Counted from the first letter of the stretch, positions 3,235-47,440 are shown. The stretch: DNA of 64,000 nt from an archaeon BMS3Abin17 (GCA_002897655.1 BDTJ01000044.1:1605-65604), one strand, 5' to 3'. Numbers and translations are program-made. The notes: generated by a model not told the origin, from the sequence alone.

Positions 3235-5490
3235 TTATCCTGCAATACCTACTGCCTCTTCTGCATAACCATAATAACCATTATTTGTACTTGGCAGTTC
3301 AACACTATTAATCTCATCTAAATCATCATCTAAATCATTTGCTTTTATGATTTTTTGAGAGATTGTATAGAGTATATTATCCATGTACAGGCTTCTTCTG
3401 ATTCTTGTGCCATAATCATAAGCATATCCTCTCTTAAGCTCGTCTTCTTCTGTTACATGAGTTATTCTTTCTATTAGGTCAAAGCCATCTTCAAGATTGA
3501 TATTATATACATAAGCTCCCTGGAAAGTATATTCTCCATATTGAGAACCATATGTTTTGTTTTCAATCTCATAAAGCTCTATGGGAATTACTAAGAGTTC
3601 TTTTTCTCTGTCAAACAAGAATGCTTTAGGGTCATTAAGTGCTTCTGAGTTTGTTCCCCTATCTCCAATAATAATTTTATGCATTTCTATTGGGTTTTCT
3701 ACATCAGAAACATCAAATATCGCCATCTTTACTCCCTGATACCATGCAAAGTCCCCTTTTTCTGCTTCTTCTGTGTCTTTACCAATTCCAATTATGTGGT
3801 TCTCATCATAAGGGTGCAGATAATTTGAATATCCGGGAATCTTTAATTTGCCTAAAACTTCTGGGTTTTCCGAGTCACTTAAGTCAATTACAAATAAAGG
3901 GTCTACTTTTTTGAAAGTCACCATATACACTCTTTCTCCCATAAATCTCACAGAATATATGCTTTCTCCAGGAGCAAGACCTTCAAGTTCTCCGATTAAA
4001 TTCAAGTTTTCATCAAGAACATAAACATTATTTTGAGTTGAAGACCTTCTTGGGGCTATATCATTTGTGCTTGCAATAATATTAGAATCTCTTGAAGTTG
4101 TAGCAATTCTGAAATTATCATCATACTCATCCATTGAAAACTGATTCAGAATACGTCCTGGAACTTCTCCAGAAGCAACATAATTTATCTCAAGCTTATC
4201 AATAGAAGTTTTGTGTATTATTGTTTTTTCCTGATTATCATCCATTCCCCTATACCAGCCACCATATTTGTATTGGGTTGTATAGATATTATCCTGAGAA
4301 ACATAAATGTTAGAAGAATAGCCGTTTAACATTGTTTCCTGAGTTGTTTCTCCATTATCAATATCTATTCCCAATATAATTGTGTATTGAAATGAATTAT
4401 CTTTAATATCCGAGTAAGCTATTTCCGGAGGTTCTATAACTTCTGTCACTTCATCTTCAATAACTACAGGCAATACAATATCATTTCCATAAACATGCTG
4501 ATTTGTGATAACATATACGTAATCTTTTATCATTCTTGAGCTAATATAATTTCCAGTAACTGATATTTCATGTTCTAATTCAGGTTCTTCTCTATCTGAA
4601 ACATCATAGATGTATATTTTTGTTAGGGTTTCTCTACCTGATGGACAACCCCCATAACATCTTTCAGATGCATAATTAACTTGAGAAGATTCTGTTGAAA
4701 ATATAATCAACTTGTCATCATTAATGAAAATATTACTTACATAATTACTAAGTTCAATCTCACTTAGTATTTCCATATCTTCTGCAGGATATGCTTTTAC
4801 AATAATTACTTTATTTCCTGAAGCAGTGTATATATATTTGCCATCATTTTTTACTATGTCTGCTTCATCAACTCCTTCAACCTGGATGTTTGTCTCTGAA
4901 TATTCGTCTGCTCCGCCTGCACTTTGACCACTAACCCTGGCAGTAGATGCCTCCATTGCCACATCTGTGCTTCCTTTGAACATACTAAAAACACCCCCAT
5001 AATCTTTTGGACTAATAGTATTTTTTTCTATGAAATTTTCCATATCTTTAATAGAGTCAAATGTATTTGTCTGGTTTTGATAACCAGGTCCTTCTAATAT
5101 ATAGGAAAATAAGATTATATTAACCACAAGCACTGCTGCAATTAAAGGTATTATTGTTTTAAGAGCGGTAAGGGTTGGCTTTGATCTGGGAGAGATTACA
5201 ATGTGTTTTTTAGCTACTTTGTACATAGGGATTTTCCTCCCCTTTTTGCTCCAAAAGAAGTTCTTTGTTTTTTCAACCAAGCCAACCCCCATGAGTTTTT
5301 TAAGATTATATTCTGTTGTGTTTAGTGGGATTCCTAAAGTATCTGCAATATCTTTTTCACTTGCCTCTTTTGTTTCTGATAGATGATTAAGAATCTTTTT
5401 GCATGTCTTGTTTCCAATAACTTCTGCGACTTTCTTTGATTTTTCGTCATTCAGGTTCATCATTATGAATTTATCATCCATGACATTCAT
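3235..5490 (-). CDS. membrane-anchored protein with N-terminal winged-helix HTH, one TM segment and an extracellular beta-propeller-like domain
   Basis: ArsR/TrmB-like HTH (EKDIADTLGIPLNTTEYNLKKL), then a hydrophobic helix, then a 600-aa repeat-rich region typical of archaeal beta-propeller surface proteins. Confidence 0.45.
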   Translation of the reverse strand: MNVMDDKFIMMNLNDEKSKKVAEVIGNKTCKKILNHLSETKEASEKDIADTLGIPLNTTEYNLKKLMGVGLVEKTKNFFWSKKGRKIPMYKVAKKHIVISPRSKPTLTALKTIIPLIAAVLVVNIILFSYILEGPGYQNQTNTFDSIKDMENFIEKNTISPKDYGGVFSMFKGSTDVAMEASTARVSGQSAGGADEYSETNIQVEGVDEADIVKNDGKYIYTASGNKVIIVKAYPAEDMEILSEIELSNYVSNIFINDDKLIIFSTESSQVNYASERCYGGCPSGRETLTKIYIYDVSDREEPELEHEISVTGNYISSRMIKDYVYVITNQHVYGNDIVLPVVIEDEVTEVIEPPEIAYSDIKDNSFQYTIILGIDIDNGETTQETMLNGYSSNIYVSQDNIYTTQYKYGGWYRGMDDNQEKTIIHKTSIDKLEINYVASGEVPGRILNQFSMDEYDDNFRIATTSRDSNIIASTNDIAPRRSSTQNNVYVLDENLNLIGELEGLAPGESIYSVRFMGERVYMVTFKKVDPLFVIDLSDSENPEVLGKLKIPGYSNYLHPYDENHIIGIGKDTEEAEKGDFAWYQGVKMAIFDVSDVENPIEMHKIIIGDRGTNSEALNDPKAFLFDREKELLVIPIELYEIENKTYGSQYGEYTFQGAYVYNINLEDGFDLIERITHVTEEDELKRGYAYDYGTRIRRSLYMDNILYTISQKIIKANDLDDDLDEINSVELPSTNNGYYGYAEEAVGIAG

Positions 5491-5596
5491 AGAAAAAAGG
5501 TGTTTATAAACGCAGCGAAGAGTTCAAAGGGAATTGAAGTTATGGGTGTTTTGATAGCCAAAGCAGTGTGCTAGAATTTTTTTACCATAAATTCTT

Positions 5597-6085
5597 TTAT
5601 TTCGCATTGAAAATATCATGATGAGGTTTGCTGTTTCTAAAACTTTCAATTTCATACTGAGAGGGACTTCTTCCATCTATAGCCCTTGCTAATATCTTTG
5701 CAAAATTACTCCCAGAGATATCGTAGAAGGCTTTAAATCTCATTCTTTGTTCAAGATTATCTTTCATAATTCTATTAATGTATTTGAAATTAGGAAGTTC
5801 AACAATAAAAAGATTATCTATTTTTGAAATCCAATTAGAAGGATAAACACAAGCTTCATATAAGTCTGATTTATTACTCCAATCACCAAAAATAATTAAA
5901 TCTGTTTCTTTGTAAAAATCTTCCCAGCATAATGAATACTCTTTGATAGGGCTTTCATATGTGGAAATTTCTGGGTTCCTTGGATTTTCAATATCATCTT
6001 CATAAGGAAGGTATAATAATCTTTGTTTTGATTGTATTTTAACTTTTGAACCTGTTTTTAAGGATTCTAATAATGCAGTTTTCAT
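5597..6085 (-). CDS. hypothetical protein
   Basis: 162-aa ORF with protein-like composition and no recognised motif. Confidence 0.35.
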   Translation of the reverse strand: MKTALLESLKTGSKVKIQSKQRLLYLPYEDDIENPRNPEISTYESPIKEYSLCWEDFYKETDLIIFGDWSNKSDLYEACVYPSNWISKIDNLFIVELPNFKYINRIMKDNLEQRMRFKAFYDISGSNFAKILARAIDGRSPSQYEIESFRNSKPHHDIFNAK

Positions 6086-31574: not shown

Positions 31575-31775
31575 ATCTTTGATTTTCGTGGTTTTCTATC
31601 AAATCTTTTGCTACTCCTCAGGCAAAAGATTTATAAACCTATTTTTTTATTAATGATTATTATAAAATTCTTTTCAGAATTTTTATATTAAATTATATAC
31701 AGATACAAAAATGGCAAAAGAAAATCTAACGATTTTCTAAACCATTTTTTACAAAAACCAAAAACATAAAAAAAA

Positions 31776-33059
31776 ATGGCAAAAGAAAAACAAAACATGA
31801 ATGTTGTGTTCGTGGGACACGTCGACGCTGGAAAGTCAACAATAGTTGGAAGAACAATGTTTGACTCAGGTCTTGTTCCTGAACAAGAGATGAAAAAACT
31901 TAGGGAAGAGGCTGAAAAGCATGGTAAAGCTGGTTTTGAATTTGCATATATTATGGATAATATTAAAGAAGAGAGAGAAAGAGGAGTTACAATTGACTTG
32001 TCATACAAGAAGCTTATGACTCAAAAATGGCAGATAACAATAATTGATGCTCCTGGGCACAGAGACTTTGTTAAGAACATGATTACTGGTGCTTCTCAAG
32101 CAGATTCTGCTTTCTTAGTTATTGCTGCACAATCAGGAGTTCAGCCACAAACTACAGAGCACTTATGGTTGCTAAGAACAATGGGTGTAAAAAACCTTGC
32201 TGTTGCAATTAACAAGATGGATTCTGTGGATTATGACGAGGCAAAATTCAACAAAGTTAAGGAAGATGTTGGAAAATTGCTAAAGGGAGTTGGAATTGAT
32301 CCTGAAAAAACTACTTTTATTGCATGCTCAGGATTACAGGGAGATAATATTGTTAAAAAATCAGATAAAATGGCCTGGTATAAAGGACCAACAATAATAG
32401 AACAGTTTGATTTGTTCCCTGCTCCTGAATTGCCAACAAATTTGCCAATGAGAATGCCTGTTCAGGATGTTTATGAAATCACAGGTATTGGAACAGTTCC
32501 TGTTGGAAAAATAGAAACAGGAGTTATGAAATCTGGTATGAAAGTTAAAGTACTTCCTGGGAGAACAGGTGAAGGAATTGAGGGAGAGGTTAAAACAATA
32601 GAAATGCATCATGAAATACTTTCTGATGCACAAGCAGGAGACAATGTAGGAATTAATATTAGAGGAGTAGGTAAAAAAGATATTGCAAGAGGAGATGTTA
32701 TCTGTGAGGCATCAAACCCAGTTCCAATAGTAGAAGAGTTTATTGGGACAATCACAGTAATTAATCATCCAACAGTTCTTGCTAAAGGTTATACTCCAGT
32801 ATTCCATATTCACACAGCACAAGTTCCTTGCCAGTTTACAGAATTAATTGCTCAAATTGATCCAAGAACAGGTGAGGTTATTAAAGAAAATCCTGACTTC
32901 CTAAAAAACGGAGATACAGCAAAAGTTAGAATAAAACCCCAGGGAAATGTTGCTTTAGAGACACAAAAAGATAATGCTTATATGAGTAAGTTTGCAGTAA
33001 GAGATGCAGGTGCAACTGTTGCTGCTGGAATGTGCACTGAGATAGTTAAAAAGAAATAA
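31776..33059 (+). CDS. tuf: elongation factor 1-alpha
   Basis: GHVDAGKST, DAPGH and NKMD motifs. Confidence 0.95.
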   Translation: MAKEKQNMNVVFVGHVDAGKSTIVGRTMFDSGLVPEQEMKKLREEAEKHGKAGFEFAYIMDNIKEERERGVTIDLSYKKLMTQKWQITIIDAPGHRDFVKNMITGASQADSAFLVIAAQSGVQPQTTEHLWLLRTMGVKNLAVAINKMDSVDYDEAKFNKVKEDVGKLLKGVGIDPEKTTFIACSGLQGDNIVKKSDKMAWYKGPTIIEQFDLFPAPELPTNLPMRMPVQDVYEITGIGTVPVGKIETGVMKSGMKVKVLPGRTGEGIEGEVKTIEMHHEILSDAQAGDNVGINIRGVGKKDIARGDVICEASNPVPIVEEFIGTITVINHPTVLAKGYTPVFHIHTAQVPCQFTELIAQIDPRTGEVIKENPDFLKNGDTAKVRIKPQGNVALETQKDNAYMSKFAVRDAGATVAAGMCTEIVKKK

Positions 33060-33270
33060 TTAACAGATTCTTTAGACAATTAAACTCTATATAAAACTTA
33101 AGATGACAAATATGTATGATGTAAGAAATGAAGAAACTTCCACAGATAGAAGTTCAGAAGAATATAGAATATCAAACAGAGAACTATTAGAGAGATGTGG
33201 TTTGCTTAGAAAAGATCCATTCATGTTTAGCATGTTTGGGGGGGAATCCTCAAACACAGATAGAAAATAT

Positions 33271-33513
33271 TTAAGATAATCCTACTGCATTAGGAAAAAA
33301 ATCTTCTAATTTCATCTCTAATAATGCTATTTTTCTTTCAGAAAGATTAGTAATAGATGTTTGGTCTGGTAATTCTCCAACATTCTCAATTATTCCATCT
33401 TTTTCAGCTTTAACCATTGCATGAAGAAGCAATGCGTATTTCCCTTTTTTTAAAAGAAAATTTTCTTCAATTTTAGCAACTAAATAATCTTTTCGGAGAG
33501 TATCGTAATCCAT
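33271..33513 (-). CDS. hypothetical protein
   Basis: 80-aa ORF. Confidence 0.3.
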   Translation of the reverse strand: MDYDTLRKDYLVAKIEENFLLKKGKYALLLHAMVKAEKDGIIENVGELPDQTSITNLSERKIALLEMKLEDFFPNAVGLS

Positions 33514-33574
33514 ACAAAATCTTATAATTAATTGTTTTATAATCCTATTTCACAACAACTAATTTTATATATTC

Positions 33575-34159
33575 TTGATTATTTCCAAAAACATGCTACA
33601 CAAAGACATGCAAAAGCATGAGATTGAGGATGCACTTGCAGATAAAGGTGATTTTGTTAAGATAGAGAGATTAACTAGCTTTCTAAAAGAAGAATTACCT
33701 ATAGATATAAAGAAATTTGTTTATCTAAAACTTGCAGAGCTTTATGAAAAAACAGGAATGTTGGTTGATTCTGCAAAGATGTATGATAATGCTGCTCTTA
33801 TCTCTATTGCTTTTTCAGAAAAGATTAAGCATTATGTTAAAGAGACAGAATTGCATATCAAGGCAGGTCATTTTGACATGGCTGAAGAGTCAATGAAAAA
33901 AGCAATGGGAAATGCAAATGTAGTTGAAAAAAATGAGATTTATATTACTATTAAAGATTTTTATAAAAGGCAGGCAGAAGCATATGAGAGAGATATAAGA
34001 AGAGGGCATGCTGCAAGAATCTATGAAAAGGTATTGGAGATGAACATATCTGACTTAGAACGATTGGAGATAAGGAAAAAATTACTTGTTTTATACGAAA
34101 AACTTGGAAGATTTAAAGAATATAAGCTGTTAAAGGGATTAGACAATGGAAATCCCTAA
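33575..34159 (+). CDS. hypothetical helical (TPR-like) protein
   Basis: 194 aa, alpha-helical composition. Overlaps the next ORF by 14 nt. Confidence 0.4.
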   Translation: MIISKNMLHKDMQKHEIEDALADKGDFVKIERLTSFLKEELPIDIKKFVYLKLAELYEKTGMLVDSAKMYDNAALISIAFSEKIKHYVKETELHIKAGHFDMAEESMKKAMGNANVVEKNEIYITIKDFYKRQAEAYERDIRRGHAARIYEKVLEMNISDLERLEIRKKLLVLYEKLGRFKEYKLLKGLDNGNP

Positions 34160-34451
34160 ATCTATTAAGGTTAATACTGGTGAACAAAGAGAAGTTCAAC
34201 CAAAAATTGATGCATTTTTTAAATCAATATATGAGGATATAAGCACAAAAGATGAATGTTCATTCAATCATTCTGATTTTGAGATTAAATTACAAGGATT
34301 ATATGATTATCCTGAAACTATATTAAACGATAAAATCCATTATTGTTCTTACAAAGGGAGGGTTGTAGGAATTGTTATTGAGGCTAGAACAGAACATAAC
34401 TATGTTAATTTTGACTTTTTTAGGAAAAATTTAGAGAATCTTTTAGATTAA
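34146..34451 (+). CDS. hypothetical protein
   Basis: 101-aa ORF, translationally coupled to the upstream gene. Confidence 0.35.
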   Translation: MEIPKSIKVNTGEQREVQPKIDAFFKSIYEDISTKDECSFNHSDFEIKLQGLYDYPETILNDKIHYCSYKGRVVGIVIEARTEHNYVNFDFFRKNLENLLD

Positions 34452-34556
34452 AACAAACACAGTCCGAATAATCTCAAACTAACCGAATAGTTTTCTTTCT
34501 GTCCAAGAAGTGTACGAAAAGTAAAGGGTTAAAAATAAGGATTTCTTGAGAAATAA

Positions 34557-37500
34557 ATGGGAAAAAACCTATTTAATGAAAAGACTATTGAAAAGAATAT
34601 AGCTAAAATAGAGCCAACAGCCAAACAAAGTACTGCTTCTAAAAGATGGATAAAATTAATAGAAACTAATCAGCTTCAAAATGAGAAATCAGCTTATATA
34701 GAATTTGCCAATACAATTCTTAGGGATTTGTTAAATTATAATATTAATATAGAAGAACTGAAACACGAAGAAAATTATATGGAGTTCTTATTTAAAGATA
34801 GTTCTAAAAGTAATCTTGTTGTTTTTGAAGCAAAAGGAACAAAAACTAAAGATTTATGGGCTCCCCAAGGAAGAAGTGTAAAAATAAAAGAAACTCCTGT
34901 GAATCAAATTAATTATTATTTAATGCATAATAAAATACCTTATGGGGTTTTAACTAATTATAAGGAATTTGTTTTATTTAAAAGAGAAGAAGGAGATTCA
35001 AAATTTCATAAGATTGATTTTTTAGAGATTAAGAATAATCAAGACAAATTAAAAGAATTTATTTTTATCTTTTCTAAAGAAAGTTTTGAGAAAGATGATA
35101 CCACAAAATTATATAAGGATTCTATAGTAGAAGAAAGAAATTTAACAAAAGAGTTTTATAAATTATATCATGAAACAAGACTTATGATTCTTAAAGAATT
35201 TAAAGAAAGTGAATTAGAAAATGAAATCTGCTTACATTGTACTCAATTATTTCTAAATAGATTAATGTTTATCTTCTTTGCAGAAGATACCAATTTACTT
35301 GATAAGAGATATTTTGAGATTAAACTATTAGAAGTTCTTGATAAAAGCAGTGGAGTAATAGATGGACACACAAATTATATTTTTGGAAAAATAAAAAGTA
35401 TCTTTAGAGAATTAGATAAAGAAATACCAAAACAAATAAAGGGTTTTAATGGTGAATTATTTAAAAAAGAAATTGATGGTAGATTATCTTTTAAAGATTA
35501 TAGAAGTAAACCTTTTTTTAATGAAGTAAAACAGAGTTATAGACTTGACAAAAATATAGAATTATACGAGAATGATAAGAAGATTTTTAACAAACATAAA
35601 AATAGATTAAGCAAAATAATAGAGAATATATTACTTATGGCTTCTTTTGATTTTAAATCAGAAGTTAATGTTAATATTTTAGGGCATATATTTGAACAAT
35701 CAATTTCTGATATAGAAAATTTAAAAGAAGAAAGAATATCTAAAAGAAAACAAGAAGGGGTCTTTTATACTCCTGAATATGTAACTGAGTATATTTGTAA
35801 GAATACAATAATACCTTACTTATCAAAAAATGGAACTAATGATATTAATGAATTAATAGATGAATATTCTAATAATATAGAAGAATTAGAGAAAAAATTT
35901 AAATCAATAAAAATTTTAGATTCTGCTTGTGGCTCTGGGGCTTTTCTAATTAAAGCAACAGAAGTTTTATTTGAAATCTTTGAAAAGATACAATTTGTTA
36001 AAGAAAATTATGGGGATTATGAAGCAAAAAGGGGTTTAAAGAGAAAAAGTAATTTTAAAGGACAATTAACTTTTAAGAAATGGGATGAAAAAGATGAGAT
36101 TAAAAATATTATAGAAAATAATATCTATGGAGTAGATATTAATGAGGAATCAGTTGAGATAACTAAATTATCATTATTCTTAAAGATAGCAAGAAAGAAT
36201 AAAAAATTGATTGACTTATCTGGCAATATCAAACAAGGAAATAGTTTAGTTAGTGATGATAAAATAGATAAGAACTTAGCTTTTGATTGGAACAAAAATT
36301 TTCCAGAGATTATGGATAATGGTGGTTTTGATGTTGTTATAGGTAACCCTCCTTATGTGTTCACAAGAGAAGTAGAGTTTAATGATAAATTTAAGGAATA
36401 TATAGCAAATAATTATCTTAATGCAAAAGATTCTATTTCAAAGAGCCATGCAAGACAATCTGGAAAGATTAATCTTTATTCTCTTTTCTTAATAAAGGGT
36501 AAGGATTTATTAAGAGATAATGGAGTTATTAGTTTTATAATTCCTAATAATCTCTTGAGAACAACTACTTATGATATTGTTAGAAAACAACTTTTAGATA
36601 ATTTTGATATTTCTGAAATAGTGGATATGGGAACAGGAGTTTTTGAAGGAGTTACAGCTTCAACAATTATTATAAAAATGAGGAAAGATAGTAATAAAGA
36701 AAGGAGAAATAAAAATTTAATTGAAATAATACCTAACTTTGAGAACTTAAGAAAGAAAAATAAAATAGAACAAATAAATTTTCTAAAAAATACAAGTTAT
36801 GCGTTCAATATTGTTTCAAATAAATCTGATAGAAAATTATTAGATAAGATTATAGAAGGTTGTATAGACCTGGGTGATATAATCACTATTCACGCTGGAG
36901 GAATTGCAACAGGAAAAAACAAAAAAGGGATGATTGAGAATTGGAAGAAAAGTGAAAAACATAAACCTATGTTAGAAGGAAAAGATATAAAACCTTTTTA
37001 TCCTGTTTTTTCTGAAAGATATATTTTATATGAAAAAAAGCTACTTTATAGAGCAAGAGAAGAATCTATATTTTTGAACCCAGAAAAATTAATCACTCAA
37101 AGGATAAGTGGAGGATTAAAACCTCTTGTTACAAGTTATGATAATGAAAAATATTACACGTTCAATTCTACTAACACAATATTATCAAAAAATAATGAAC
37201 ACTCATTAAAATATATTCTAGCTCTATTAAATTCAAGATTAATTAATTGGTATTATGTAAGTAAGTTTACAAATAAGTCAAATTTAACTGTTAATATCTC
37301 TAAAACATTTTTAGAAAAGATACCTATAAAAAAAATATCTCCAGAACAACAAAAGCCATTTATTGAAAAATCTGATTTTATGATAGATAAAAATAAAAAA
37401 TTTTATGAAATAAAAAAGAAATTCATAAAGTTAGTTAAGTATAAATATAACTTAGATAAAATCTCACGAAAGTTAGATACATTTTACAAACTTAATTTTA

Positions 37501-37706
37501 AAGAATTTATTAGTGAAATACAAAATAAAAATAAAGTAATGAGTATAGAAAAAGAAGCTGAGTTAATGGATTTTTTTGAAAAGAACAAAAAAGAAGTTTT
37601 AGAATTAGTTAATGAAGTTTCTAAAACAGAAAGAGAAATAGATGAGATGGTTTACAAGCTCTATGGGATAACAGACAAAGAAAAAGAGATTATTGAAAAG
37701 TCTTAA
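34557..37706 (+). CDS. Type IIG restriction-modification enzyme (MmeI-like): N-terminal PD-ExK endonuclease, gamma-class N6-adenine methyltransferase and C-terminal target-recognition region
   Basis: D81-x9-E91-x-K93 has the same spacing as the MmeI catalytic D-x9-E-x-K. MTase motif X (GVFYTPEYV), motif I (ILDSACGSGAFLI) and motif IV (NPPY). Length 1049 aa. Confidence 0.8.
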   Translation: MGKNLFNEKTIEKNIAKIEPTAKQSTASKRWIKLIETNQLQNEKSAYIEFANTILRDLLNYNINIEELKHEENYMEFLFKDSSKSNLVVFEAKGTKTKDLWAPQGRSVKIKETPVNQINYYLMHNKIPYGVLTNYKEFVLFKREEGDSKFHKIDFLEIKNNQDKLKEFIFIFSKESFEKDDTTKLYKDSIVEERNLTKEFYKLYHETRLMILKEFKESELENEICLHCTQLFLNRLMFIFFAEDTNLLDKRYFEIKLLEVLDKSSGVIDGHTNYIFGKIKSIFRELDKEIPKQIKGFNGELFKKEIDGRLSFKDYRSKPFFNEVKQSYRLDKNIELYENDKKIFNKHKNRLSKIIENILLMASFDFKSEVNVNILGHIFEQSISDIENLKEERISKRKQEGVFYTPEYVTEYICKNTIIPYLSKNGTNDINELIDEYSNNIEELEKKFKSIKILDSACGSGAFLIKATEVLFEIFEKIQFVKENYGDYEAKRGLKRKSNFKGQLTFKKWDEKDEIKNIIENNIYGVDINEESVEITKLSLFLKIARKNKKLIDLSGNIKQGNSLVSDDKIDKNLAFDWNKNFPEIMDNGGFDVVIGNPPYVFTREVEFNDKFKEYIANNYLNAKDSISKSHARQSGKINLYSLFLIKGKDLLRDNGVISFIIPNNLLRTTTYDIVRKQLLDNFDISEIVDMGTGVFEGVTASTIIIKMRKDSNKERRNKNLIEIIPNFENLRKKNKIEQINFLKNTSYAFNIVSNKSDRKLLDKIIEGCIDLGDIITIHAGGIATGKNKKGMIENWKKSEKHKPMLEGKDIKPFYPVFSERYILYEKKLLYRAREESIFLNPEKLITQRISGGLKPLVTSYDNEKYYTFNSTNTILSKNNEHSLKYILALLNSRLINWYYVSKFTNKSNLTVNISKTFLEKIPIKKISPEQQKPFIEKSDFMIDKNKKFYEIKKKFIKLVKYKYNLDKISRKLDTFYKLNFKEFISEIQNKNKVMSIEKEAELMDFFEKNKKEVLELVNEVSKTEREIDEMVYKLYGITDKEKEIIEKS

Positions 37707-38893
37707 TCTTCTTCAACATCCTTCCGTTTACTTAATGATAATCTAAAATCCCGGATAATATCAACCATCTTTTTAAGTTCATTATCAATATTCCCCCCAA
37801 CAACCTTGCTATTTAATCTCGGATAACAAATCATTGAAAGTTCTTCGTATAGTCCTTTATCCTTCATTAACTGAATAAACTTTTCTTTATTCTCACCTTC
37901 TGGCATTACAATCTTATCAAACTCTTTAACAGAACATTTCTTGTTTGAACCATAAACAATATCAACCCCAAACTGTTTTGCATATTTTATCAAATTATCT
38001 TTAAATTCTTCTTCTGCTTTTTTTAATTCTGCTTGTTTAGTTTTAACTTCTGAATATTCATCTACTAATTTAACTCCTTCATCTTCCTTGAATTTTTTAA
38101 TATCTTCAATTTTTTCTAATTCAACTTCGTGTTTAAAACTTGGGCATTGTTCTTTGTAAACACAATAATCACAAAGTGCAGATTGTTTTCTTGGAAATTC
38201 TTTAGCATTTTCAATTTCTTTTATTCTTTCAATAACATCTTGTTGTAATTTCTCCAACTGCTCATCTGTTCTTTCTGAAATAGCATCTTTGTTAAAAGCC
38301 AACATATGCCAAATCAATTTAACAGATTTAGCATCTGGAAATTTGTCTTTAACCCAAACAGAATAAAGAGCAAGTTGCCTGTCTGAATCAGCTTCTCCTT
38401 GATCCTTCATTCTTGCATTTGTTTTATAATCACAAACAAAATAATTTCCTTTATTATCACAACCTAACTTATCTATCCTAACATGCCACTGGTTTCCATC
38501 AGAAAGGGTCATTCTATCGGTTGTCTCTAATCCTAAGATTGTCATCTCTTCAAACGGTTTCATTCTTTCATAATAATGAGTAATAAACTTCTCACCCATT
38601 TTCTTATAGTTATTAGCAGTAAGTTTTTCTTTCTCTGCTTTAACAATTAGAATATCTTCAGAATAATTTTTATCCCACAAATCTCTATAAAACTTAATTA
38701 AAACATTCAAGGCAACTCTTTTCTTAAACTTCTTTAATTTATACAAATGTTCTAAAGTTTGATGAACTATCTCTCCCATAAACGCTTCTATTGTTGTAGG
38801 AACATTAACTTTAACTTTATCAATATATCTTAATTTATATTGGTAAGGACAATTTTCAAAACAAGAAACTCTGGAGTGTGAATAGGCTGTCAT
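37703..38893 (-). CDS. Cas4-like PD-(D/E)xK nuclease with a 4-Cys Fe-S cluster signature and an uncharacterised ~150-aa C-terminal extension (start set at MTAYSHSR...)
   Basis: YSHSRVSCFENCPYQYKLRY N-terminal motif. VCDYK D/ExK motif. C-terminal CDYCVYKEQC (Cx2Cx5C) combined with an N-terminal Cys, the Cas4/AddB Fe-S arrangement. Start adjusted away from the overlapping MYSQT... extension. Confidence 0.65.
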   Translation of the reverse strand: MTAYSHSRVSCFENCPYQYKLRYIDKVKVNVPTTIEAFMGEIVHQTLEHLYKLKKFKKRVALNVLIKFYRDLWDKNYSEDILIVKAEKEKLTANNYKKMGEKFITHYYERMKPFEEMTILGLETTDRMTLSDGNQWHVRIDKLGCDNKGNYFVCDYKTNARMKDQGEADSDRQLALYSVWVKDKFPDAKSVKLIWHMLAFNKDAISERTDEQLEKLQQDVIERIKEIENAKEFPRKQSALCDYCVYKEQCPSFKHEVELEKIEDIKKFKEDEGVKLVDEYSEVKTKQAELKKAEEEFKDNLIKYAKQFGVDIVYGSNKKCSVKEFDKIVMPEGENKEKFIQLMKDKGLYEELSMICYPRLNSKVVGGNIDNELKKMVDIIRDFRLSLSKRKDVEED

Positions 38894-38894
38894 T

Positions 38895-39680
38895 TTAATA
38901 TTTATCCGCTTTCTTTGGATAGATAACCCCCACAACAATATATGTTTTGAATCTATAATGTGTTCCAACAACAAAATAAAAATCTCTCTTGTTTGGGAGT
39001 ACATTAAAAAATTTATCCTTTACTTTTTCAAATACTACTTTTTCATCTTTGTATTTTCCCTGTTCCCTATATTTATCACAATTCCTATATAGTGCTATAA
39101 GCTCCCAATCCTCACACATAATTTTATGTTGGATAGGGCAAGATTCTGAGCAATTAAACTTATACGAAAAAAGATTTTTGGGAATCCATATTTTTACTGC
39201 AGACTCTCCATCAATTAATGTTGTTTGTTTTCCTTTCTCTTTAATCTTTTTATAATTTTCATTAGCCTCTTCCACAAAATCAATTAGTTTGTTAGGTTTT
39301 ATTATTCCTAAGGATACTTCTCTAGGATTTTTAGCATAAAGTTCTTCTAAAGAAATTATCTTTTGTTCTATTAATTCTTTAAGTTCTTTAAATGACGCTG
39401 GACCCAAGTCTTTAATTGTTTTTGTAATAATCTTACGACTTTCTGGTCTATGGTCAGAAGGTTCATCACTTTCAGTTTCATACTCTATCCAATTTTTCTT
39501 CTTGAAACTTTTCTCATTCCAAAATACTTCAAATGGTACAGGATATATTCTTCTTAATTCTCCCTTATCTGTTATTCCAGCTACACATACAAGATGTTCA
39601 TACTTTTTACTTACTATTGGATAAGTTTTTGTTAATACTAATAATTTTTCTTTCATTTTCATAAATTGTTTACTTTCCAA
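38895..39680 (-). CDS. hypothetical Cys-rich protein (CSESCPIQHKIMC...C cluster), middle gene of the cassette
   Basis: 261-aa ORF. Its stop lies 1 nt from the start of the nuclease gene, and it overlaps the upstream DUF488 gene by 22 nt. Confidence 0.45.
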   Translation of the reverse strand: MESKQFMKMKEKLLVLTKTYPIVSKKYEHLVCVAGITDKGELRRIYPVPFEVFWNEKSFKKKNWIEYETESDEPSDHRPESRKIITKTIKDLGPASFKELKELIEQKIISLEELYAKNPREVSLGIIKPNKLIDFVEEANENYKKIKEKGKQTTLIDGESAVKIWIPKNLFSYKFNCSESCPIQHKIMCEDWELIALYRNCDKYREQGKYKDEKVVFEKVKDKFFNVLPNKRDFYFVVGTHYRFKTYIVVGVIYPKKADKY

Positions 39681-40510
39681 CCTCTCTCCGCTAGTCGTTC
39701 AGCAATTATGCTCCTGTGACATGTTTTAAAATCTTTTTCAAAACACAACAATACTGTTTTTTTCCTTCTCGCTCTTCCTTCAATGTCTGAGATATTTTCT
39801 AAGACATCTGGGTCTTTTATATGTTTTTTATATTCTCTAAAAAATCTTTCATAATCCATGTCCTTATATAATTGATGTCTCACTTCTTTAGGAGAACCTA
39901 ATTGAGGCATATGTTTGTAAGTAATCCCAACTTCTTTTAATTTAGAACTTAGAATTGTTTTAGAAAATCCATTCTTTCTACTTAATGGAAGTTCTCTAAC
40001 ATCAATTAATTGTTGTACATTACTATCTTTAAGTTTCTTAATGAATTTTTCTATAGTGTATCCCTCATACCCAATAGTATAAATTGTATCATTTTCAGAA
40101 TTCCAAAAAAGATTGCCTCCAATCTTTATTCGTTTTAGTCCAATATCTTTTTCTAATAATCTAACCCATTTATTATTAGGGTTTTTTTGATGAAGATTTA
40201 ATTTATCCCTAATTTGTGTCCAAGTTAAACCAGCAGGATGTCTTTCAAGTATATTCTTTATAGAATCTTTAAATTCATCATAAAACATTTCTTCATCATT
40301 TTTACTTAGATTTTTTTTGGAAAGTGGTTTTAAAAACAATAAATCTTTTTTAATTTCATCTTGCAATTCAACTCCCTCTTTCCATCCTAATTGTTTTATT
40401 CTATCAGTAGGAATTACCAAAACCCATTTTACATATTTTTCATAATTAGGGTCATCCTTTTTTCTAGAAGATTGTTTTTGAAGTTTCATATCTTTTATCT
40501 TGGTACCCAT
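39659..40510 (-). CDS. DUF488-domain protein with an N-terminal ~130-aa extension (possible DNA-binding)
   Basis: C-terminal half matches the DUF488 signature (IYTIGYEG...LIDVRELP...LLCFEKDFKTCHRSIIAERL). Confidence 0.55.
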   Translation of the reverse strand: MGTKIKDMKLQKQSSRKKDDPNYEKYVKWVLVIPTDRIKQLGWKEGVELQDEIKKDLLFLKPLSKKNLSKNDEEMFYDEFKDSIKNILERHPAGLTWTQIRDKLNLHQKNPNNKWVRLLEKDIGLKRIKIGGNLFWNSENDTIYTIGYEGYTIEKFIKKLKDSNVQQLIDVRELPLSRKNGFSKTILSSKLKEVGITYKHMPQLGSPKEVRHQLYKDMDYERFFREYKKHIKDPDVLENISDIEGRARRKKTVLLCFEKDFKTCHRSIIAERLAERGWKVNNL

Positions 40511-40586
40511 TATTTAAAAGCTTATTGGTACCCACACCATATATATTTCTGGGTACCCAAATGTTTATAAAGGTCTGGGTACCCAT
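40501..40586. promoter_or_regulatory. four phased GGTACCCA boxes (24-26 nt spacing), each followed by an AT-rich TATA-like segment, in the divergent promoter between the DUF488 cassette and the transposase
   Basis: GGTACCCA at 40502, 40528, 40552 and 40578. The first copy overlaps the cassette's start codon. Confidence 0.5.
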
Positions 40587-40592
40587 TATATT

Positions 40593-41570
40593 GTGGTGAT
40601 AAGATATGACACTATGGAACAACAAACAAAAATATTCCAGAACACAGAAAACTCAAAACCAATCATAGCTTTGCAAAAGAACAAATATACTTTAGAGCAA
40701 GAAAAAGAGAGATTCATCAACAATATGTGTGATTTCATAGAACCACTCAATTTTGAGCAATTACAGGTTATGGGAAGACCAAGAGCTGATTTTAAGGGTA
40801 TAATAAAGGCAATTTTGTTGATGTCTTATAATAGCATGTCCTACAGGAGAACTCAATCAGATTTAAGAAAGATGCATGAAGAAGGATTAATTCAATATAT
40901 TCCTCCAAAAAGTACATTAAATGATTATGTTAATAATGAGAATACTAAAGGATTAATTGAAAGACTAATACAAATATCAGCGTTATTCTTTAATGAAAAT
41001 GAAGATACAACTATTTTAGATTCTACTTGGTTTGGTCAAAGAATGTATTCTGGAGGTTACAGAAAAGTTTATGATAAGAAAAATGCTCCATTGCAAAAAG
41101 TTAGAAAGCTTCATATTGCTTGTTTAAAAAATAGTAAGGTTATTGCTTATGCTAAAGCCACGGTTGGAACAAAAAATGACAGTCCTTTATTTAATGAAAT
41201 TGTCAATGCTATTGTAAAAAATGGTTTCCATATTAAAACAGTTTTGGCGGATGCTGGTTACTCAAGCAAAAACAATTATGCACTTTGTAAAGAACTTGGA
41301 ATTTTGAATGTTTTTATTGACTTCAAGAAGAATGCTACACTAAGGAGAGCTAAGAGTGATTTATGGAGAGAGAAACTTAGATTGTATAAAGAACAAAAAG
41401 AAATCTGGAATCAAACTTACAGATTTAGAGTAATTGTGGAGGGAATTTTTTCAGCAATTAAGAAAAAAAATATTAATTATCTTCGTTCTCGGAAGGAGAT
41501 TGCTCAGGATGTTGAGGTTCTTCTGAAGGCTCTGGTTTACAATTTGACGATAATTGGGAAATATTCTTAA
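40593..41570 (+). CDS. IS5/IS4-superfamily DDE transposase
   Basis: DDE triad regions ILDSTW, LADAGYSS and VEGIFSAIKK. Length 325 aa. Confidence 0.7.
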   Translation: MVIRYDTMEQQTKIFQNTENSKPIIALQKNKYTLEQEKERFINNMCDFIEPLNFEQLQVMGRPRADFKGIIKAILLMSYNSMSYRRTQSDLRKMHEEGLIQYIPPKSTLNDYVNNENTKGLIERLIQISALFFNENEDTTILDSTWFGQRMYSGGYRKVYDKKNAPLQKVRKLHIACLKNSKVIAYAKATVGTKNDSPLFNEIVNAIVKNGFHIKTVLADAGYSSKNNYALCKELGILNVFIDFKKNATLRRAKSDLWREKLRLYKEQKEIWNQTYRFRVIVEGIFSAIKKKNINYLRSRKEIAQDVEVLLKALVYNLTIIGKYS

Positions 41571-42201
41571 CTTCTTCAATTCCAGCAAAAAGAATCTTGT
41601 TATTTGTCCAATCCATCTTACAAGGAGTATAAAATCTAATTTCCTTTATTTTTGGTTCAAAATTGTCCCCTGAAATTTCTATTATTGCAAAATATCTTTT
41701 ATCTTCACAAATAAAATTTCTACCTCCTGTAGAAGAAAAAATAACTTCTTTTGTTGCACTATCAATCCAAAATAAATCACAAAATTCCCATCCCCCTTTA
41801 GGTGAAATATCTTTATTCTCTTTAAAAATAGGAATTAATTGATTAATATCTGATACTAAATTTATCCTCTCAGGGTCTATTCTAAACCCCATATCTCTTG
41901 GAGCACTAGACCATTTTAATACGTCTGGTTCATTCTTATCTAGCACATTATTTCTCTCTTCAGATTTAACAGACAACAGTTTTACCTTACAATTTCTAGC
42001 AACTGTTTTACCCTCATTAACAATTTTTATACGAAAAAGCATTCCCATTGAATTTAAAAAAGGGTAAATAGAATAAGGTTCGTAATTTCCAAATCCAATT
42101 TTTATAAGAGGTCTATCTTTCCAATCCCAAAATCTTTTTCCAAATAATGCAACAACAACAGCCAAAAAAGTTATTATTATTAAAATTACTGTTAAAACCA
42201 T
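41473..42201 (-). CDS. membrane-anchored hypothetical protein; acidic low-complexity C-terminal tail encoded within the transposase 3' region
   Basis: N-terminal TM helix followed by a soluble domain. Its last ~33 codons overlap the transposase C-terminus convergently. Confidence 0.4.
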   Translation of the reverse strand: MVLTVILIIITFLAVVVALFGKRFWDWKDRPLIKIGFGNYEPYSIYPFLNSMGMLFRIKIVNEGKTVARNCKVKLLSVKSEERNNVLDKNEPDVLKWSSAPRDMGFRIDPERINLVSDINQLIPIFKENKDISPKGGWEFCDLFWIDSATKEVIFSSTGGRNFICEDKRYFAIIEISGDNFEPKIKEIRFYTPCKMDWTNNKILFAGIEEVKNISQLSSNCKPEPSEEPQHPEQSPSENEDN

Positions 42202-42563
42202 AAAAGAGTTTAGAGAAAGAAGTTTTTAATGATTATTGTATTTCTTTATTCGGACACTATTTGGATTGTTTTAACTTTTCGGACTGTGTTATTAAAACAG
42301 CAAACTTTAAAAACTCATTCTGGTATTAATATATTATTAGAAGAATATCGATTAAAATAAGTAGATTAATCAATCACATTCACGATCACATTGTTAATTT
42401 AGCATATTAATGCTCTTTACGAATGCAGAACTGACAAAAATTAGTCTGATATTTTTCTACGATAGAAAATTTGTGTAAATAGGAATTTTCTGGGACAGAA
42501 AACATTTTGTTTTCTATAGAAATCAATATGATTTCATTCAATTAAATAAGGAAAAACAAAAAC

Positions 42564-46862: not shown

Positions 46863-47219
46863 TCATTCTAAACCTAAACTTATCTTAATAGCTAAATCAA
46901 CTTTATTCATGATAAGATTATCAAGATGACTTAACTTCTTAATAATTCTTCTTTTATCAATTGTTCTTATTTGATTAAGTAAAACTACAGAATCTTTTTC
47001 TAAATTTGAATCACTTTTTGATAAAATTACATTAGTTGGATATTCTTTTTCATAAACTTTAGAGGTTATAGGGGCAACAATTGTTAATGGACTAAATTTA
47101 TTTGATATGTTATTCTGGATAATAAGCGCTGGCCTAATTTTTCCTTGTTCCACTCCTTTAACTGGCTCAAAATTAACCAGAAATATATCTCCTCTTAATA
47201 TTTTTGCTACCATTCCCAA
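46863..47219 (-). CDS. mazF: MazF/PemK-family endoribonuclease toxin
   Basis: RGDIFLVNFEPVKGVEQGKIRPALII ... SPLTIVAPITS motifs. Confidence 0.8.
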   Translation of the reverse strand: MGMVAKILRGDIFLVNFEPVKGVEQGKIRPALIIQNNISNKFSPLTIVAPITSKVYEKEYPTNVILSKSDSNLEKDSVVLLNQIRTIDKRRIIKKLSHLDNLIMNKVDLAIKISLGLE

Positions 47220-47440
47220 TCTAATTCAGCATCAATAGCTTCCAATTCTTTGTTAATTTTTAGGCTATCTTCTGCCATTGCCTTGCACCCTTCTATTAAT
47301 AATTTCTCTTGTTTTCTTTTTTGCTCTTCTGCAACTTTCATTAAATTCAAGATAATCTGCTCGTAAGTTTCTTTATTTGTCTTTAATCTATCTAAAGCAT
47401 TTTTCACATTTTCATTAAGCTGGATTGTTGTTACCATCAT
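47207..47440 (-). CDS. putative antitoxin partner of MazF
   Basis: 77-aa helical ORF overlapping mazF by 13 nt, in the upstream position. Confidence 0.5.
   Translation of the reverse strand: MMVTTIQLNENVKNALDRLKTNKETYEQIILNLMKVAEEQKRKQEKLLIEGCKAMAEDSLKINKELEAIDAELDWEW

Follow-up and report, generated by a model that had tools for sequence, protein, structure and literature searches.

Do three abutting genes in an inserted island of an archaeal genome act as one DNA-targeting system, or do they only travel together? The question is raised by a 64-kb stretch of DNA (64,000 nucleotides (nt), here called the window) from the archaeon BMS3Abin17 (GCA_002897655.1 BDTJ01000044.1:1605-65604), where genes A, B, and C are packed on the minus strand beside a restriction-modification (RM) enzyme and a transposase. 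The original prediction had taken the three genes for a single candidate system. We find that all five genes are enclosed in a 7,835-bp transposon, and comparison across genomes corrects the probable functional unit from three genes to two plus one. The best explanation, which we regard as reasonably probable, is that the three genes are transposon passengers, with A and B as a conflict module and C as a separate, RM-linked nuclease.

Gene layout

The window belongs to a low-GC (~32%) archaeon of the Nanoarchaeota type (DPANN) with a small genome, and it encodes aEF-2, aEF-1alpha, and an archaeal DnaG. The genes in question are the following.

Gene A: 40510->39659, minus strand; 283 amino acids (aa); DUF488 protein, PDC-M19A family
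Gene B: 39662->38895, minus strand; 255 aa from ATG 39662; PDC-M19B family, no Pfam family
Gene C: 38893->37703, minus strand; 396 aa; Cas4/AddB-like PD-(D/E)xK nuclease with 1+3 Cys and a family-specific C-terminal ~135 aa

The tight packing reported earlier was confirmed from the open reading frame (ORF) listing and inspection of the sequence: all three genes lie on the minus strand and abut or overlap. The ORF listing, and with it the original prediction, places the start of B at TTG 39680 (261 aa), while ATG 39662 overlaps the stop codon (TGA) of A by 4 nt as ATGA. Because this 4-nt overlap is the commonest arrangement among homologous loci, and because the PADLOC model aligns to B from residue 10 of the long form, ATG 39662 is most likely the true start (255 aa); the stop at 38895 stands. 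The start codon of C (ATG 38893) lies one base beyond the TAA of B, and at its 3′ end C shares 4 nt with the convergent RM gene (34557-37706).

A and B form a conserved gene pair

Searches with PADLOC models assigned A to PDC-M19A (1.1e-43, 147.8 bits; residues 137-278 are the matched part) and B to PDC-M19B (5.7e-49, 165 bits), and the two adjacent genes follow the order of that cassette (FAM_02799>>FAM_02993). PDC-M19 is cassette CAS_00089, one of the PDC-M multi-gene candidates picked by “guilt-by-embedding” in BREX, DISARM, and type I RM loci (Payne et al. 2024, bioRxiv 10.1101/2024.01.29.577857). The combination of a DUF488 protein with this partner is thus not undescribed, having already been listed as a defence candidate. 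The pair in the window resembles PDC-M19 in matching both models, in the adjacent A->B order on one strand, and in the presence of an RM gene nearby, as in the embedding logic. It differs in that A carries an additional N-terminus, probably of AbrB plus helix-turn-helix type, beyond the part matched by the model, and in that the pair is carried by an archaeal transposon, with a nuclease gene downstream of it.

The co-occurrence of the two genes was scanned in one genome per species, which yielded 46 loci of B from archaea and bacteria. A DUF488 protein is encoded at every one of them, and in 43 cases its gene immediately precedes B on the same strand, mostly overlapping it by 4 nt. Three loci deviate: in L017 it is found ~1 kb upstream, in L023 the genes are convergent, and in L056 the B ORF falls under the phmmer threshold. 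A C-like nuclease occurs at none of the 46 loci. Other carriers of the pair are Gordonia CZ1 temperate phages, in which it stands beside the immunity repressor, an element integrated in Methanocaldococcus indicus, and plasmids from Rhizobium, Pseudomonas, Burkholderia, Streptomyces, and cyanobacteria. Together these results show A and B to be a conserved two-gene unit and a widespread, already listed defence candidate.

In the Gordonia phage Nymphadora (L060, NC_031061, 5974-7271), the B homolog gp43 directly follows the immunity repressor gp44, and the convergent gp42, annotated as “HipA toxin”, is a DUF488 protein (hmmsearch 6e-37), so the public annotation of gp42 is probably wrong. The gp42/gp43 pair is likely expressed from the prophage. 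A reading of gp44 as a fusion of a helix-turn-helix domain with DUF488 was rejected; the DUF488 gene is the convergent gp42. The CarolAnn defence paper, also considered, concerns other genes.

Close relatives of B number 154 (46-66% identical), come mostly from DPANN archaea, Archaeoglobi, Thermoplasmatota, and Methanocaldococcus, and contain no Pfam domain. A profile search extended the family to 1,909 clusters at 50% identity, nearly all of stand-alone proteins of 240-300 aa; a single viral contig in IMG/VR carried B. The sole DUF488-B fusion found is P0314, a metagenomic protein of 409 aa whose residues 14-131 form the DUF488 domain and residues 154-398 a complete B domain; it may be genuine, or a frameshift at the customary ATGA overlap may have produced it.

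In the predicted structure, B consists of an N-terminal OB fold and a second alpha/beta domain. The earlier view that B has no recognisable family stands as far as Pfam is concerned, although B also matches phrog_25907; no close match to the model was found in PDB, and neither B nor its profile gave a significant hit to PDB sequences. B may correspond to DuOB (PF22557, dual OB-containing domain) but did not match its Pfam model; one search gave weak matches and another none. The cysteine cluster highlighted in the original prediction, CSESCPIQHKIMC, is not a feature of the family: residues C170 and C174 are variable. Full conservation is seen at H179 and W186, and near-full conservation at C183, E184, D185, and E187.

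C belongs to a separate family of RM-linked nucleases

Gene C matches Pfam PDDEXK_1 over residues 4-251 (E 3e-30), the only Pfam family to pass for this protein. Alignment of 24-27 homologs revealed invariant C15, C241, C244, and C250 (1+3 Cys), D141, D155-Y-K157, and Q173...Y177. The call of a PD-(D/E)xK nuclease with a 1+3 cysteine signature and a DYK motif therefore holds, except that the first cysteine of “SCFENC” (C11) is not conserved. As in Cas4/AddB-type Fe-S exonucleases, the cysteines are combined with D...D-x-K and QxxxY motifs and a PDDEXK_1 domain. Matches to Cas4 and AddB themselves are sub-threshold, the Cas4 equivalog (TIGR00372) scoring 29.4 bits against a cut-off of 65; unlike Cas4, C has no cas genes or CRISPR array nearby, the window being devoid of CRISPR repeat arrays and the element of cas genes. 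Among Pfam-annotated or sampled neighbours of C homologs, cas genes were likewise absent, CARF/Csa3-type regulators excepted. C gave no significant hit to PDB sequences and was not found in IMG/VR viral contigs.

C further departs from Cas4/AddB in its C-terminal ~135 aa, which are conserved within the C family, and in its usual neighbours, RM and type IV restriction genes. The suggestion that this C-terminal part belongs to no placeable family was borne out: it had only spurious weak Pfam matches, and a search with it alone returned only fragments of C family members. The shallow alignment, with sequences 72-87% identical, gave an AlphaFold2 model of C (pLDDT 54) too poor for fold searching.

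The relatives of C number 1,867, and the best 120, mostly labelled Nanoarchaeota, are 72-87% identical over the full length. C and its homolog in contig L006 (8001-9188) share 84% of amino acids and 81.5% of nucleotides, compared with 63% identity for EF-1alpha and 55% for EF-2 between the same genomes. At the nucleotide level, homology extends from 4 nt ahead of the ATG to the stop codon. Identity above that of the elongation factors, in a homology bounded by the ORF, indicates horizontal transfer of C among Nanoarchaeota. In the window and in L006 alike, the unrelated gene upstream of C ends in TAA-A-ATG.

Neighbourhoods of C were collected at 83 loci, 80 of them from metagenomes, and dereplicated to 32 loci of at least 7 kb. 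Recurring neighbours in the full set include N6_N4 methylases (18 loci) and MmeI-like type IIG enzymes (16 loci), along with GmrSD type IV enzymes, a ResIII helicase, and a UvrD-PDDEXK protein. An RM-type neighbour is present at 21 of the 32 dereplicated C loci, in contrast to 4 of 36 dereplicated B loci. At eight loci, including L006-L008 and L075, a gene for a CARF/Csa3-like Rossmann plus winged-helix protein (PADLOC CARF3, 3e-52) lies 2 nt upstream of C and constitutes a second recurrent regulator-type partner. Genes A and B were found at only two further C loci (L097 and L066), and both belong to the same transposon family. Because all cases of A-B-C occur in this one family with the same divergent transposase, the recurrence is shared descent within one lineage.

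The genes are cargo of a 7,835-bp transposon

DNA comparison of the window with L097, L066, and L094 uncovered a short conserved element outside the genes, with an inverted copy at the far side of a low-GC region. This delimits a transposon at 34456-42290 (7,835 bp; 27.1% GC, compared with 32.4% in the remainder of the window), whose insertion site lies between dnaG and a small ORF. Besides A, B, and C, its features and flanking repeats are as follows.

34447..34455: left copy of the target site duplication (TSD), ATTAAAACA, 9 bp; includes the stop codon of ORF 34146-34451
34456..34510, plus strand: left transposon end; perfect 13-bp terminal inverted repeat (TIR) AACACAGTCCGAA (34456-34468), then subterminal (G)TCCGAA-like repeats
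34557..37706, plus strand: MmeI-like type IIG RM enzyme, 1049 aa; cargo, with Pfam and PADLOC matches
40593..41570, plus strand: DDE transposase of the IS4/IS5 superfamily; likely true start ATG 40614 (318 aa)
41473..42201, minus strand: 242-aa ORF without a family match; N-terminus hydrophobic; shares ~100 nt with the 3′ end of the transposase gene
42244..42290, minus strand: right transposon end; subterminal TTCGGAC repeats and perfect 13-bp TIR TTCGGACTGTGTT (plus strand, 42278-42290)
42291..42299: right TSD copy ATTAAAACA, 9 bp

Each 13-bp TIR sequence is unique in the window, and when lengths of 4-12 were tried directly outside both ends, only the 9-mer matched exactly. The left-end sequence recurs in L097, L094, and L066; the ends have the form AACA(C/T)AGTCCGA, and the uninterrupted target site would read ...TTTTAGATTAAAACAGCAAACTTTAAAA. 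GGTACC repeats were considered as ends of an insertion sequence (IS) but proved not to be, as the element terminates at 34456 and 42290 and these repeats vary in step with the N-terminus of A.

Family searches confirmed both flanking genes named in the original prediction. The MmeI-like enzyme matches Eco57I, TaqI_C, N6_Mtase, MmeI_Mtase, MmeI_hel, and HSDR_N_2 in Pfam (MmeI_N falls below cut-off) and REase_MTase_IIG in PADLOC (5e-69). It has the type IIG architecture, with an N-terminal nuclease, helicase-like spacer, gamma-class N6A methylase, and TaqI_C specificity domain in a single chain. The transposase matches DDE_Tnp_1 (6e-19, 69 bits against a cut-off of 23) and shares 74-76% identity with its counterparts in L097 and L094 in alignments that begin at residue 8; its score against the IS5 equivalog (NCBIfam NF033579, IS5_2), 92.7 bits, is the best among several IS families and lies under the cut-off of 140. 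Three complete elements were compared.

Window: 7,835 bp; TSD ATTAAAACA; transposase and C; MmeI-like enzyme, A+B, 242-aa ORF
L097: 6,656 bp; TSD TGGGACTAA; transposase and C; 545-aa methylase, A+B, two small ORFs
L094: 5,587 bp; TSD TTAACCATA; transposase and C; MvaI/BcnI endonuclease and methylase, 107-aa ORF; no A/B

Transposase, C, and an RM component are common to all three. Exact 9-bp TSDs and 13-bp TIRs in three independent insertions establish an active cut-and-paste-type transposon family with defence-type cargo, and the earlier impression of an inserted island with mobile, defence-type cargo thereby gains exact ends. The transposon therefore explains the island, the horizontal-transfer signal of C, and the recurrence of A-B-C, whose order is inherited within a single element lineage. 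These comparisons show that the cargo has three independent parts: the MmeI-like RM enzyme, gene C, and genes A and B. The two small ORFs of L097 are unrelated to the 242-aa ORF of the window and occupy the same position in the element. We hold the genomic anatomy of the locus, as described here, with high confidence.

IS derivatives that carry cargo (“transporter IS”) are known, as are transposons with defence cargo, for example Tn7-like elements. The family described here resembles them in having one DDE transposase, subterminal repeats next to short TIRs, a TSD of fixed length, and a variable cargo dominated by defence genes. It is set apart by its IS4/IS5-superfamily transposase, 9-bp TSD, DPANN host, and the constant inclusion of a Cas4-like nuclease, and its elements, unlike Tn7, lack Tn7-type targeting genes.

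Gene A and its candidate operators

The DUF488 call for A was upheld by a match to the entire Pfam profile (PF04343; residues 152-273, profile 1-121 of 121, E 4e-32, 111.7 bits against 22.2), and A also matches the “active DUF488-N3” subclade model. Over 30 aligned partners of B, the residues G147-Y-E149, D170, R172, S177, Y198, R211, C256-x-E258, and C264-H-R266 are invariant, so that the window protein has a full-length domain with the GYE...D.R...S...C.E...CHR residues of the family. The N-terminus, in contrast to the invariant DUF488 domain, is exchangeable: 7 of the 30 homologs carry MazE/AbrB and 5 SocA-Panacea, while in others it is a Zn-ribbon or absent. The N-terminal ~135 aa of A itself are a probable AbrB/MazE-like plus helix-turn-helix DNA-binding module.

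The region between the divergent genes for A and the transposase contains the following sites.

40500..40585: four palindromes TGGGTACCCA (at most 1 mismatch) at 40500, 40525, 40550, and 40576; candidate operators for A

The palindromes are 25-26 nt apart and interleaved with AT-rich TATA-like boxes; the four copies compare with 0.48 expected, and none occurs elsewhere in the window. Where A homologs have this N-terminal module, their upstream regions keep the arrangement of four sites with interleaved TATA-like boxes, the palindrome reading TGGGTACCCA in L066, TTGGTACCAA in L097, and TTAGACGTCTAA in L015. L042, whose A has a Zn-ribbon joined to the shared helix-turn-helix segment, has a different inverted-repeat set, and AbrB-only homologs have a single palindrome beside a TATA-like box. 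Because the layout is conserved while the palindrome sequence co-varies with the N-terminus of A, we infer that the palindromes are putative operators for autoregulation.

Proposed working of the locus

Under the reading that we favour, A would repress its own operon, and probably the divergent transposase too, through binding of its N-terminal module to the four palindromes that bracket the TATA-like boxes. Its DUF488 domain would be the catalytic part, acting on phosphate-bearing sugar or nucleic-acid termini. DUF488 is said to belong to the rhodanese-phosphatase superfamily, in the RapZ-C/DUF488/DUF4326 clade with a Rossmannoid fold; the activity on phosphate-bearing ends in conflict systems predicted for this superfamily is computational only. 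The OB fold or folds of B would bind single-stranded nucleic acid or DNA ends, and B would either present the substrate to A or be held in check by A. Together the two would act as an autoregulated, toxin-antitoxin-like conflict module directed at nucleic-acid ends of DNA that is invading or replicating. The most likely role of C would be to resect DNA cut by the neighbouring restriction enzyme, and C would not be the effector of A and B. We put this specific biochemical mechanism forward as tentative.

The pair has features of toxin-antitoxin systems such as DarTG, PanAT (with Panacea), and MazEF (with an AbrB-type antitoxin): a two-gene operon with the regulator first and predicted autoregulation, and MazE/AbrB or Panacea domains on A homologs. 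In DarTG, moreover, the first gene bears an enzyme domain, the macrodomain of DarG. The differences are that the antitoxin-type N-terminus of A is dispensable while DUF488 is invariant, that B lacks an ADP-ribosyltransferase or other known toxin fold, and that A lacks a macrodomain.

Bolder versions of these roles can be formulated. A and B may represent a new class in which a DUF488 enzyme and a dual-OB protein add or remove a terminal phosphate-linked group on DNA or RNA ends, the enzyme doubling as repressor. C may be a dedicated “post-restriction” enzyme for resection, brought along by RM systems in DPANN archaea without RecBCD, or, by analogy with TnsA, may serve as second-strand nuclease with the DDE transposase. 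Taken jointly, a new end-chemistry conflict class, a dedicated post-restriction nuclease, and a TnsA-like transposase partner seem unlikely.

Several observations weigh against the view of A and B as a conflict module with C as an independent passenger. A-B-C recurs with 1-nt spacing in three loci although B is at most 36% identical among them, and since this arrangement has been kept despite the divergence of B, C may be functionally coupled to A and B inside this transposon lineage. The DNA-binding assignment of the N-terminus of A involves a weak AbrB-type alignment (hhalign E 0.028 over 31 columns) and a helix-turn-helix recognised by pattern only; its 137 aa have no Pfam match other than spurious weak ones, and neither A nor its N-terminal profile gave a significant hit to PDB sequences. 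Several A+B loci lie outside defence islands, among housekeeping genes (SMC, AlaRS, and IF-2 in L013; metabolic genes in L003). The Sulfolobus islandicus conjugative plasmid pSOG2 (L061/L144, NC_010598) carries B beside an integrase without DUF488, and no DUF488 gene was detected anywhere on its 26 kb; in some bacteria and phages A and B are convergent. A lone B and convergent pairs therefore fit a simple toxin-antitoxin pair poorly. In addition, the resection role of C is reasoned from context alone, and the 145 PDCs are described as untested by Payne et al. (2024, bioRxiv 10.1101/2024.01.29.577857).

Alternative explanations

The arrangement of the locus itself suggests a single three-component DNA-targeting system in which C would be the effector nuclease of a PDC-M19 variant. 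The shared strand, the ATGA overlap, and the 1-nt spacing agree with this, as does the same gene order in L097 and L066, with A (67-71%) and C (77-87%) preserved but B strongly diverged. The distributions of the genes, however, point the other way: C is missing from all 46 B loci, A and B accompany C at only 2 further of the 83 C loci, and every such case falls within the single transposon lineage, of which L094 has C without A or B. C is, moreover, coupled equally tightly to the unrelated CARF/Csa3-winged-helix gene elsewhere, and we regard this explanation as improbable. If the pair is set apart from C, it could still be a plain addiction module that stabilises its carrier and has no anti-virus role, with B as toxin and A as enzymatic or binding antitoxin. 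Antitoxin-type N-termini (MazE/AbrB, Panacea), palindromic candidate operators suggestive of autoregulation, overlapping genes with the regulator first, and carriage on plasmids, a transposon, an integrated element, and temperate phages all accord with it. Yet in A it is the DUF488 domain, with its catalytic-looking invariant residues, that is conserved, the N-terminus can be absent, and B has an OB-type fold in place of a known toxin fold; the convergent arrangements, the possible DUF488-B fusion, and, more mildly, the solitary B of pSOG2 also speak against it. A plain addiction module is therefore rather unlikely in our estimate.

The two remaining explanations concern functions outside defence. 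A, B, and C could form a DNA-end processing or repair kit of the transposon, in which the DDE transposase and C would correspond to TnsB and TnsA of Tn7, and the OB-fold protein and an end phosphatase would mend the donor break or the 9-nt target gaps. The transposase and C do occur together in 3/3 complete elements, the candidate operators lie in the promoter region common to A and the transposase, and DNA ends are the common theme of the predicted functions (nuclease, OB fold, phosphate-end enzyme); but such a transposase is near only 4 of the 32 dereplicated C loci, A and B are overwhelmingly found without transposase or C, and C is a member of the Cas4/AddB-type Fe-S exonuclease family, not TnsA-like, which makes this the case to which we assign very little weight. 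Alternatively, A and B could be a housekeeping pair for nucleic-acid metabolism or repair, mobile here by chance, as the 46-66% identity of B across distant archaeal phyla and the housekeeping surroundings of L013 and L003 would suggest. Their patchy spread in archaea and bacteria, carriage by plasmids, phages, and a transposon, the variable N-terminal regulator domains of A, and the discovery of PDC-M19 embedded in RM, BREX, and DISARM loci argue against such a role, which we consider quite improbable.

Other features of the window

At 31679-31794, a 51-nt stretch with ATGGCAAAAGAAAA occurs in two copies 65 nt apart with 73% identity, the second overlapping the aEF-1alpha start codon. Overlapping ORFs of 77 aa and 118 aa on the minus strand at 46863-47440 resemble, by eye, a ribbon-helix-helix antitoxin and a PemK/MazF-type toxin. 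In the related contig L006, an rpS10 gene follows aEF-1alpha (3600-6000, compared with 33000-34456 in the window); among window ORFs, 33575-34159 and 34146-34451 have no S10 Pfam match, and the 80-aa ORF 33271-33513 was outside that scan.

Significance

These results do not overturn current ideas; their value lies in making a defence candidate experimentally tractable. DUF488 is a large family, and its partner B comprises ~1,900 clusters at 50% identity with no Pfam family and no close PDB fold. The locus offers three handles on the pair: a candidate operator for A, a two-gene expression unit, and natural variants with swapped antitoxin-type N-termini. Recognised defence systems are generally scarce in archaeal genomes, and DPANN archaea are depleted in CRISPR-Cas and RM. 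The IS-type transposon family described here moves RM genes, a Cas4-like nuclease, and a defence candidate between such archaea. In bacteria, broken DNA is resected by RecBCD or AddAB, and the link between nuclease C and RM genes may show how restriction products are cleared in archaea without these complexes.

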